A stretch of DNA of 64,000 nucleotides, taken from NCBI GenBank assembly GCA_963701085.1, contig OY969561.1, positions 672,001 to 736,000 of the forward strand. The letters are read 5' to 3'. Under the pieces are notes generated by a model. That model was not told the origin of the DNA. It saw only the letters and a list, made by a program, of their open reading frames with translations, and did no database searches. This DNA comes from an uncultured bacterium. Lineage in GTDB: Bacteria; Babelota; Babeliae; Babelales; Vermiphilaceae. This document shows, in pieces, positions 44,456-46,117 of the stretch. The stretch's first letter is position 1. Every line of letters starts with the position of its first letter. The translations under genes were made by a program, and so were the position numbers.

Positions 44456-46117
44456 ATGCACTTCAAAACCATTTTATTTCCATTCATTTTCTTGGCAACA
44501 TGCATTCCCCACACATCTTTTGCTATGCATGGTAAAAAACAAATAGCAGAACAAAAAAAACGCATGCAACAGAACTTACAAAAAAAAAGAACTCAAAATG
44601 AATGCAATACAAAGCTACTAAAATTATGCGATATAGATACAACAAACAAAGATCTATCCTTCATACTCAAACTACATGATACTGCAAAAAATCTTCTTGA
44701 TAATGGTGCCGATATAGAAGCACAAACAGTAAATAAATGCACTTCACTATATCTTGCTTGTTCAAACAAAAACTTTCCAATGGTAAAACTACTCATTGCT
44801 TATGGCGCCAATGTAAATACTCAAACTGAAAATGGTTATACTTCCTTGGCAGTTACTGCACAAAAGGGATTTTTTGATATAGTAAACATACTGACCATGG
44901 CACAAGCAAGCCCCAACATTCAAAATTTTAAAGACGGACAAGTACCTTTACATAATGCTTGTAGTGCCGGAGATTTTAATATTGCAAAAAATTTACTTGA
45001 ACATAACGCAAACCCAAATATACAAACATTATACGGAGAAACAGCTCTTCTTTTTGCCGCAAGTCCACAACATCTTGATATAGTAAAGTTGTTATTTCAA
45101 TATCGCGCAAATCCAAATATTCAAAATAGTGAGGGATTAAGCCCTCTCTATCTTGCTTGCCAACACAATAATGTAGAAATGGCAAAAATAATACTTACTA
45201 ATAATGCAAACCCTGATGTACAAAAATCAAACGGTGCAACATCACTTCGTGTTGCTGTAGAAAACAAGTTTATTGATATAATACATCTGTTATTTACATT
45301 CCATGCAAATCCAAATATTCAAGATAATAATGGAGTAAGCCCATTGCACTTTGCTTGCGGCAAAGGCTACTTAGAAATAGTAGAAATATTGCTTAACAAT
45401 AAAGCAAAGATAAATACTGAGACCAAAAAAGGTAAATGGACTCCATTACACGCCGCTTTTTTCTATGATCATTTTTTTATTGTAGCACTATTACTCAAAC
45501 ATAATGTCAATGTTAATGCTCAAAATATTGATGGCATAACACCTTTACATCTAGCTTATTACAAAAAGAATCGAGTTATGATATACCTTCTTTTGCTGTA
45601 TGGTGCCAAAGATATTTCTCGTCAACAAGCTCAAAAAGAAAAACAGCAATTTTTTGAAGATGTAAATCAAAAAGCACCTCAAGTAATACTTCCAAAAGAA
45701 AAACCTGTAGTACCTCATCAACCGGCAACAAAAAAAGATAGCGCTATAAAAGATCAATCACCCCAGAAAAACTCTCCTTCAACCAAAGCTTTAAAAAACA
45801 AGCCAAATCCTACAAAAAACACGGTTACAATACATACTCCACAAAAAAATGAATATCTCATTTTACAAGATAAGAAGTTTAAGTGGGGCAGATTTTTAAG
45901 TACAACACAGCAAAATGCAATAAAAGACCACGCAAAAGAACTCAAATATTGGCCTGAGGTAACTGATCTTGATATTAAGCCTCTCCAAGGAGTCGAAAAA
46001 GGAACATATCGTCTGCGTGTTGGTTCATGCCGCATTAAATTTTTTATTGATGAAAAAAGTCGTCAAATTTTCATCCAAAAAATTGGCCTGCGCAAAAATA
46101 TATACCGAAACAAATAA
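44456..46117 (+). CDS. Exported ankyrin-repeat protein with a C-terminal RelE/ParE-like domain
   Basis: Signal ...SFA-MH; about 9 canonical ankyrin repeats; Lys/Pro-rich linker; IKPLQG...YRLRVGSCRIKFFID...IFIQKIGLRKNIY. Confidence 0.88.
   Translation: MHFKTILFPFIFLATCIPHTSFAMHGKKQIAEQKKRMQQNLQKKRTQNECNTKLLKLCDIDTTNKDLSFILKLHDTAKNLLDNGADIEAQTVNKCTSLYLACSNKNFPMVKLLIAYGANVNTQTENGYTSLAVTAQKGFFDIVNILTMAQASPNIQNFKDGQVPLHNACSAGDFNIAKNLLEHNANPNIQTLYGETALLFAASPQHLDIVKLLFQYRANPNIQNSEGLSPLYLACQHNNVEMAKIILTNNANPDVQKSNGATSLRVAVENKFIDIIHLLFTFHANPNIQDNNGVSPLHFACGKGYLEIVEILLNNKAKINTETKKGKWTPLHAAFFYDHFFIVALLLKHNVNVNAQNIDGITPLHLAYYKKNRVMIYLLLLYGAKDISRQQAQKEKQQFFEDVNQKAPQVILPKEKPVVPHQPATKKDSAIKDQSPQKNSPSTKALKNKPNPTKNTVTIHTPQKNEYLILQDKKFKWGRFLSTTQQNAIKDHAKELKYWPEVTDLDIKPLQGVEKGTYRLRVGSCRIKFFIDEKSRQIFIQKIGLRKNIYRNK

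Follow-up and report, generated by a model that had tools for sequence, protein, structure and literature searches.

RelE toxins belong to the toxin–antitoxin (TA) systems of type II. As known from Escherichia coli, Thermus, Pyrococcus and Mycobacterium tuberculosis, they are proteins of about 90 residues encoded together with an antitoxin. Mutational analyses of E. coli RelE have shown that cleavage is lowered by the R61A, R81A and Y87A substitutions and nearly abolished by R81A/Y87F, whereas K52A and K54A have little effect (Neubauer et al. 2009, PMC2807027). The E. coli toxin is also active on eukaryotic ribosomes (Andreev et al. 2008, cited in PMC2807027 and PMC11980606). The gene considered here lies on the forward strand, at positions 44456–46117 of a 64,000-nucleotide stretch of an uncultured bacterium (contig OY969561.1, positions 672,001 to 736,000, called the window below). 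An earlier note, made from the letters alone, had read its product as an exported ankyrin-repeat protein fused to a RelE-like toxin without antitoxin, and had rightly stated that RelE is active on eukaryotic ribosomes. The protein shares with the TA toxins a predicted common fold, profile homology, equivalents of R61, R81 and Y87, and a relative in the same genome. It differs from them in that the RelE-type part is the C-terminal domain of an exported-looking protein of 553 residues, with no adjacent antitoxin. The reading that we favour, with a probability of about 0.55, is that of a modular protein secreted as an effector by an obligately host-dependent bacterium, probably of Candidatus Babeliales (Dependentiae/TM6); the RelE domain of this effector would cleave host mRNA in the ribosomal A site.

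RelE-type domains carried by larger proteins have been described before. In the Tox-RelE polymorphic toxins (Zhang et al. 2012, PMC3482391), such a domain is also found at the extreme C-terminus of Sec-exported multidomain proteins. These systems are described with RHS repeats, HINT peptidases, Imm54 immunity genes and variable cassettes, whereas ankyrin repeats, a conserved toxin domain and no immunity gene are found here; the phyla tabulated for Tox-RelE in that paper do not include Dependentiae. Closer in design logic, and likewise host-associated, are the ankyrin proteins of Wolbachia and Amoebophilus ending in a toxin domain (Tox-REase-8, OTU or latrotoxin-CTD) without immunity gene, which the same paper infers to be host-directed in endosymbionts. 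In contrast to these, the toxin part is here a RelE mRNase, listed in PMC3482391 only with RHS repeats, the carrier is Babeliales-like, and delivery would be Sec-dependent rather than through a known effector injector. For Rickettsia, an obligate intracellular bacterium, the TA RNase VapC has been reported to act on RNA of the host (PMC12321070); it is, however, a PIN-domain RNase still paired with VapB, with neither targeting repeats nor a signal peptide fused to it. The multidomain toxins of the RelE/ParE (BECR-fold) family reviewed by Gerdes (2025, PMC11980606) similarly have family domains within larger proteins, the examples given being TA fusions, transmembrane variants and defence operons. 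That survey excluded multidomain proteins without an identifiable antitoxin, and the words 'ankyrin', 'signal peptide' and 'secret' have no occurrence in its main text. The Dot/Icm effectors AnkH and AnkY of Legionella are likewise ankyrin proteins of an amoeba-associated bacterium; the NCBIfam models of Legionella ankyrin effectors score here at best 121 bits, against a cut-off of 600 and over the repeats only, and no VirB4-type ATPase was found in the genome. Neither an ankyrin–RelE family nor a RelE-family effector was found in the literature searched, though such architectures may be listed in supplements, for example in Table S2 of PMC11980606 or in Additional File 1 of PMC3482391. The finding fits an existing framework, that of the Tox-RelE polymorphic toxins and of the endosymbiont ankyrin–toxin effectors. 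Both halves had already been named by automatic annotation, three relatives being called 'ankyrin repeat protein/mRNA-degrading endonuclease RelE of RelBE toxin-antitoxin system' by JGI.

The order of the parts is a signal-like N-terminus, a basic helix, ankyrin repeats, a further helix, a linker and the RelE-fold domain (Table 1). The gene is an exact open reading frame (ORF) with no internal stop codon, as had been stated. With 48 family sequences as input, AlphaFold gives a full-length model with a mean predicted local distance difference test score (pLDDT) of 88.9 and a predicted template-modelling score of 0.80. Residues 1–23 are hydrophobic and poorly modelled. The claim of about nine ankyrin repeats agrees with both Pfam (Ank_2, E value 1.2e-79; Ank, 1.9e-58 over eight stretches) and the model, in which nine helix pairs are seen at residues 97–381 with a pLDDT of about 98, preceded by an N-cap helix, for a total span of 67–381. 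The low-complexity linker described in the earlier note is also recovered: its residues 420–462 fall below a pLDDT of 50, and it is the least conserved region of the family. The compact alpha/beta domain then spans residues 468–549. In the family, the helix that follows the ankyrin repeats has the consensus IS..QA...M..FF.ELNQE. The helix at residues 27–58, directly after the signal peptide, contains two KKR clusters, and close relatives have a similar stretch of the Q(K/R)RMQQ type; this helix could be a localisation element or a contact with RNA or the ribosome.

Reads had been suggested as a way of detecting a stop or frameshift between the two parts. Four metagenome runs, belonging to four studies, hold contigs of 141–234 nucleotides that match parts of the gene, and these matches are free of insertions, deletions and joints. 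No contig covers the gene from end to end, and the parts left uncovered are uninformative. A longer contig matched only two 18-nucleotide pieces near the 3' end of the gene. The runs with contigs identical to parts of the gene come from freshwater, lake water and soil. A look-up of the protein in the protein atlas returned generic ankyrin clusters only.

The identification of the last 90 residues or so as RelE/ParE-type, proposed in the earlier note, holds, but not by the most direct route. The last 113 residues have as best Pfam match PF15781 (ParE-like_toxin) with an E value of 0.029 and 14.8 bits against a cut-off of 28, do not match PF05016, and have no match in NCBIfam. A phmmer search of PDB sequences with the same residues yields only Rv2866 of M. 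tuberculosis (E value 0.26) and a Thermus 'toxin-like protein' (0.46). The profile search that had been proposed is thus negative when run directly, whereas a profile built from relatives of the domain finds RelE structures in the PDB: 1wmi at 5.7e-20, 3g5o at 2.5e-14 and 3bpq at 3.3e-11. The short proteins matched by the domain in phmmer are standalone toxins of about 85–90 residues, and 65 of the 73 sequences in the alignment built from the phmmer matches belong to PF05016, as do 11 of the 48 fused family members at an E value of 1e-3 or lower. The fused domain also shares 49% identity over 45 residues with the canonical RelE toxin encoded in the genome itself (E value 2e-11).

The AlphaFold model of the domain calculated on that alignment reaches a pLDDT of 86.9 and has a strand–helix–four-strand layout (strands 28–31, 66–69, 77–82, 85–92 and 97–105; helix 43–58). 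When this model is compared to the PDB by Foldseek, the top match is the Thermus RelE structure 2khe (E value 4.1e-5, template-modelling score TMt 0.74), and M. tuberculosis RelE2 (3g5o, TMt 0.79), Pyrococcus aRelE (1wmi), M. tuberculosis RelE1 and 9g12 are also at the top. HigB2, Methanococcus RelE, YoeB, YafQ and E. coli RelE, including its ribosome-bound form 4v7k, follow at lower ranks. TMt values to the RelE structures range from 0.73 to 0.79, and the 19 best-ranked matches are all ribosome-dependent mRNases of the RelE, HigB, YoeB and YafQ groups. The C-terminal domain is therefore, by homology and predicted fold, a RelE-fold homologue.

Structural determinants of catalysis appear to be retained too. 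The annotated E. coli K-12 relE product was aligned with the domain and 13 relatives using MAFFT, which places Arg526, Arg546 and Tyr550 at R61, R81 and Y87, in agreement with the earlier statement that the basic residues and terminal tyrosine are kept; Arg519 and Arg521 align with K54 and R56. Among the 48 family members, Arg521, Arg526, Phe529 and Tyr550 each have a frequency of 1.00, and Arg519 and Arg546 one of 0.96. The surrounding sequence varies, the mean frequency of the top residue being highest in the RelE domain (0.57), followed by the post-ankyrin helix (0.50), the ankyrin repeats (0.34) and the linker (0.22). Near-invariant equivalents of R61, R81 and Y87 in such a variable context point to a working enzyme rather than to a decaying remnant. 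The protein ends three residues past Tyr550, with no C-terminal extension.

The association of ankyrin repeats with a RelE-type domain is, judging from the alignments, that of a conserved family and not a one-off. A phmmer search over 1.84 billion cluster representatives gave 113 matches at an E value of 1e-3 or lower, and 46 representatives of 197–818 residues (the protein's own entry not counted) carry the domain at their very C-terminal end. A further long match, P0037, was excluded from the family as a repeat protein without relation to it. The closest relatives for which DNA is available share about 50–60% protein identity, a divergence too high for a meaningful dS. The family alignment comprises 48 sequences, namely this protein, 42 long matches and five fragments; ankyrin repeats are present in 45 of them, the three others being among the fragments, which bears out the ankyrin plus RelE architecture that the earlier note had proposed to search for. 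A homologue search with residues 441–553, word-filtered and of limited reach, returned four proteins. An alignment-based search for related loci gave 38, of which L003 is the sole fusion, the others being standalone toxins, many of them archaeal.

Within the phylum, 77 of the 261 species-representative genomes have some match to the domain, mostly standalone toxins in reading frames of about 95–120 residues. Long frames of 435–841 residues matching at 1e-30 or lower are restricted to eight of the 261: the source genome, six genomes of its genus, one of which carries two fusion copies, and one genome from a different genus within the family. This count leaves aside two weaker long-frame matches (genomes G022 and G085). 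The history of the fusion was approached with a tree of 115 RelE domains, for which 92 columns are few and many forks are left unresolved. On the quick free tree, the 'fused' label requires four changes, compared with a mean of 37 after shuffling; the midpoint root falls inside the fused group, and a simple clade read-out failed. A tree constrained to unite all 48 fused domains is 22 log-likelihood units better than the quick free search, with a p value of 0.70 in the approximately unbiased test. A single origin of the fusion is thus the best tree found, and is compatible with, that is, not rejected by, this test.

The N-terminus has the look of a signal peptide, as the earlier note had seen. 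Residues 1–23 comprise a lysine at position 4 and a hydrophobic core (maximum Kyte–Doolittle mean of 2.45 over 11 residues), followed by S-F-A before Met24, and this arrangement is conserved in relatives. By a simple hydrophobicity criterion, a signal-like N-terminus is present in 32 of the 43 family members with usable N-termini, and the hydrophobic segment nearly always ends in small-x-small followed by Met. Several of the 11 members without the segment are fragments or gene calls starting at that Met (P0007, P0119). The NCBI call P0121, in the same 90%-identity cluster as P0119, extends 23 residues further and thereby takes in the hydrophobic segment.

This Met (Ala23-Met24, positions 44522–44527 here) is a wider feature of the genome. 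A residue of the set [AGSTC] followed by Met occurs within 14 residues past the hydrophobic core in 157 of the 374 signal-like ORFs, against an overall Met frequency of 2%, and the first internal Met lies at positions 17–32 in 46% of the signal-like ORFs versus 30% of the others. Around it, position −1 is Ala, Gly, Ser or Cys in 68% of cases and position +1 is Glu in 31%. It is possible that this Met is a preferred +1 residue of mature exported proteins, or a second start codon. Its presence also accounts for gene calls in which the signal peptide is left off. In the effector that we propose, it may give a 'native-looking', stable N-terminus to the mature protein in the host cytoplasm. In several relatives (P0019, P0024, P0034), a lipobox-like L-[LS]-[GS]-C motif is observed within the hydrophobic segment, six to nine residues before Ala-Met; residues 13–16 of the present protein read L-A-T-C. 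Part of the family might thus be exported as lipoproteins and not in soluble form.

Signal-like N-termini were found in 374 of the 955 crude ORFs of the genome, a share close to the 44% reported for Chromulinavorax destructans, a cultured member of the same phylum in which 78% of the ankyrin proteins, proposed to be effectors, carry a signal peptide (PMC6561590). The genome also holds two secretins. A crude motif count gave five ankyrin ORFs in this genome and was discarded as unreliable.

As to an antitoxin, its stated absence holds for the locus but not for the genome. No antitoxin-like ORF flanks the gene, no conserved small partner gene is found at seven related loci (L003 and L042–L048 inspected), and there is no sign of an autoregulated operon structure at the fusion gene. 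Elsewhere in the genome (C1, about 1079818–1080350), however, a RelB-like antitoxin and a RelE toxin form a canonical overlapping pair. In five fusion-bearing relatives, 91–98% complete, there is no PF05016 match beyond the fusion itself, nor any match to the RelB-like antitoxin at an E value of 0.1 or lower, the latter being a weak negative obtained with a single protein query.

An intramolecular equivalent of an antitoxin was considered through complex prediction between the ankyrin part (residues 25–430) and the RelE domain (462–553). In the calibration of this docking, 58 of 80 solved complexes attained the mark, as did 2 of 110 mismatched pairs; among those scoring 0.60 or below were just 7 of the 80 and both mismatches. 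The median obtained is 0.34 (0.37, 0.34 and 0.31), compared with 0.02 for the best of three controls, with a partner pLDDT of at least 76 and at least 81% of the contacts shared between runs, and a pass at such scores is more often wrong than right. Inhibition in cis by docking of the ankyrin repeats is, from these models, a possibility.

The neighbouring genes have been annotated differently from what was first suggested on one side only. The upstream neighbour had been called an F-box–ankyrin gene; no F-box is detected in it by Pfam, even at E values up to 10, or among PDB sequences, and its ankyrin similarity is weak. The cysK assignment of the downstream neighbour is upheld, as a cysteine-synthase-like enzyme dependent on pyridoxal phosphate (PLP). 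It is neither an antitoxin nor a known immunity protein. Two relatives within the genus, L043 and L046, have this gene after the fusion as well, and its adjacency may be plain conserved gene order. Certain tRNase toxins of contact-dependent inhibition systems depend on CysK as an activating partner. The present protein does not end in ...LI, as some of its relatives do. In L043 (genome G257), the fusion comes directly after the ATP synthase c gene, the 210-residue upstream neighbour not being conserved there. The ATP synthase c protein of the window itself has several c-type units in one chain, to be compared with the 60 positions of the Pfam ATP-synt_C profile. The two flanking genes of unknown function (210 and 317 residues, Table 1) also start with signal-like N-termini, and the region gives the impression of exported proteins clustered among housekeeping genes.

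Table 1. Parts of the ankyrin–RelE gene, genes around it and the separate TA pair of the genome; positions are those of the window, except for the TA pair, which is numbered within locus L002.
Feature	Positions	Strand	Basis
Whole gene, 553 codons and stop	44456..46117	+	ORF list, translation, full-length AlphaFold model
Signal-peptide-like N-terminus, residues 1–23, S-F-A before Met24	44456..44524	+	hydrophobicity, conservation
Basic Lys/Gln/Arg-rich long helix, residues 27–58	44534..44629	+	AlphaFold model, sequence
Ankyrin domain, residues 61–385, N-cap and nine repeats	44636..45610	+	Pfam, AlphaFold model
Post-ankyrin helix, residues 386–410 (helix 389–403)	45611..45685	+	family consensus, AlphaFold model
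K/P/Q/T low-complexity linker, residues 411–462, predicted disordered	45686..45841	+	pLDDT, conservation
RelE-fold domain, residues 463–553	45842..46114	+	domain model, Foldseek, profile search
Putative catalytic span: Arg519, Arg521, Arg526, Arg546 (with Lys547), Tyr550	46010..46105	+	RelE alignment
ATP synthase subunit c gene, 321 residues	42775–43740	+	four matched stretches of PF00137
Upstream neighbour, 210 residues, signal-like N-terminus, weak ankyrin similarity	43773..44405	+	Pfam Ank_5, E value 1.2e-4, below cut-off
Downstream neighbour, cysteine-synthase-like PLP enzyme	46240..47148	+	PF00291 (PALP), E value 6.9e-73
317-residue gene, signal-like N-terminus	47845–48798	-	weak Schlafen GTPase-like match, E value 0.04
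RelB-like antitoxin, 82 residues	L002 1154–1402		PF18506, E value 1.4e-6
RelE/ParE toxin, 94 residues	L002 1402–1686		PF05016, E value 1.2e-9

The carrier is probably a host-dependent, Babeliales-like parasite of protists, as suggested by a small genome (1.199 Mb in one contig), two ATP/ADP translocases and a Babeliales-labelled relative. This relative is P0119, 75% identical in the RelE domain, which shares its cluster with P0121, labelled 'Candidatus Babeliales bacterium' by NCBI. Candidatus Babeliales is an order of Candidatus Babelota, and Candidatus Chromulinivoracaceae, the family of C. destructans, stands directly under this order; the 261 phylum genomes all belong to one order and are small.

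In the mechanism proposed for such a parasite, a Sec-type signal peptide would move the protein out of the cytoplasm. As the toxic domain is made last and leaves the cell, an antitoxin gene would be unneeded; as the periplasm offers no substrate to RelE, an exported copy would have to act beyond it, outside the producer. The ankyrin array would bind a host protein or structure and set the site of action, and it may also restrain the nuclease domain. The flexible linker would tether the RelE-type domain, which would enter the ribosomal A site and cleave mRNA there, using Arg526, Arg546 and Tyr550 in the way E. coli RelE uses R61, R81 and Y87. The target would be host translation, on cytosolic or organellar ribosomes. 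A bolder version can be put forward tentatively, with the odds somewhat against it: that Babeliales turned a type II TA RelE into a dedicated family of ankyrin-guided secreted proteins cleaving A-site mRNA on host or organellar ribosomes. It would be the first case in nature of a ribosome-dependent mRNA interferase used across kingdoms, in which export and perhaps docking in cis have replaced the antitoxin.

Several points weigh against a secreted, host-directed RelE. The signal peptide was judged from hydrophobicity, the −3/−1 pattern and conservation only; export is suggested by composition and conservation, and the route past the outer membrane into the host is hypothetical, the genome having no match to a VirB4-type type IV secretion ATPase (PF03135). 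No Shine–Dalgarno sequence is visible by eye before Met1 or Met24, and the gene call made for this gene in the protein collection (P0006, 530 residues) begins at Met24, which would give a cytoplasmic protein. Because the C-terminal domain fails the Pfam and NCBIfam thresholds, its family membership has to rest on transitive and structural evidence. K52 of E. coli RelE lies opposite a gap in the MAFFT alignment. The RelB-like antitoxin of the genome might cross-protect against the fused domain, and no RNA run holding the gene is listed. Lastly, a clear fusion in eight of 261 phylum genomes means that this is not a core feature of the lifestyle.

Some of these points are starting points for other readings. 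With the start at Met24, or with the N-terminus kept as a membrane anchor, the protein could be a single-chain cytoplasmic TA or defence module, its ankyrin repeats serving as cis-antitoxin or sensor until a trigger (phage, stress or linker proteolysis) frees RelE onto the cell's own ribosomes. The Met that follows the segment in nearly all members agrees with such a start, the docking lends weak support, and fused TA genes as well as multidomain RelE/ParE defence toxins are documented (PMC11980606). This module nevertheless looks unlikely: the 32 hydrophobic N-termini have residues typical of cleavage at −3/−1, P0121 is called with the segment, a Met at this place is common genome-wide and not special to the gene, Pfam finds no DNA-binding antitoxin domain, and the docking passed in a range where errors prevail. 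If the protein is indeed exported, it might alternatively be an antibacterial Tox-RelE polymorphic toxin used against competitors or siblings, with immunity encoded elsewhere. Tox-RelE figures among the toxin domains that end Sec-exported polymorphic toxins (PMC3482391), RelE is natively active on bacterial ribosomes, and the RelB-like antitoxin of the genome could provide the immunity. RHS or filamentous repeats, a processing peptidase domain and a downstream immunity gene are however missing, the protein is most conserved in its C-terminal domain, which is thus no variable cassette, and the five relatives mentioned above carry the fusion without a RelB-like gene. Ankyrin arrays moreover point to eukaryotic partners, and an intracellular parasite would meet few competitors, so that we regard an antibacterial role as improbable.

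The nature of the domain itself leaves room for two further explanations. It could have kept the RelE fold and lost the nuclease activity, becoming a ribosome-, RNA- or protein-binding module that positions the ankyrin array, as the missing counterpart of K52 and the low direct Pfam score might suggest. There is little chance of this, given that 48 diverged members show little or no variation at the equivalents of R61, R81 and Y87, and that the replacement of K52 or K54 mattered little in the E. coli enzyme (PMC2807027). The direct Pfam matches bear ParE names only, this protein matching PF15781 and its relatives PF05016, which would fit a ParE-type gyrase poison. But PF05016 includes E. coli RelE itself, and the RNase catalytic residues, described as absent from ParE toxins (PMC11980606), are retained here. 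This Arg/Tyr set, as aligned, favours a RelE-type RNase, and with mRNases at all of the 19 best fold matches and no extension past the terminal tyrosine, a gyrase poison seems very improbable indeed. A secreted effector that would cleave host mRNA continues to be the preferred reading.

A compact family, clear predicted catalytic residues and existing assays, such as RelE cleavage on 80S ribosomes, make this hypothesis directly testable. Provided that the domain is active and gets into the host, TA nucleases would be recruitable as effectors against eukaryotic translation, and the family would illustrate one way to live with a toxin without an antitoxin. Work on eukaryotic or organellar translation could in that case also gain a RelE that is targeted by nature. 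For Dependentiae, a widespread and almost uncultured phylum, it would then provide a testable function for one of their many unexplained ankyrin proteins.

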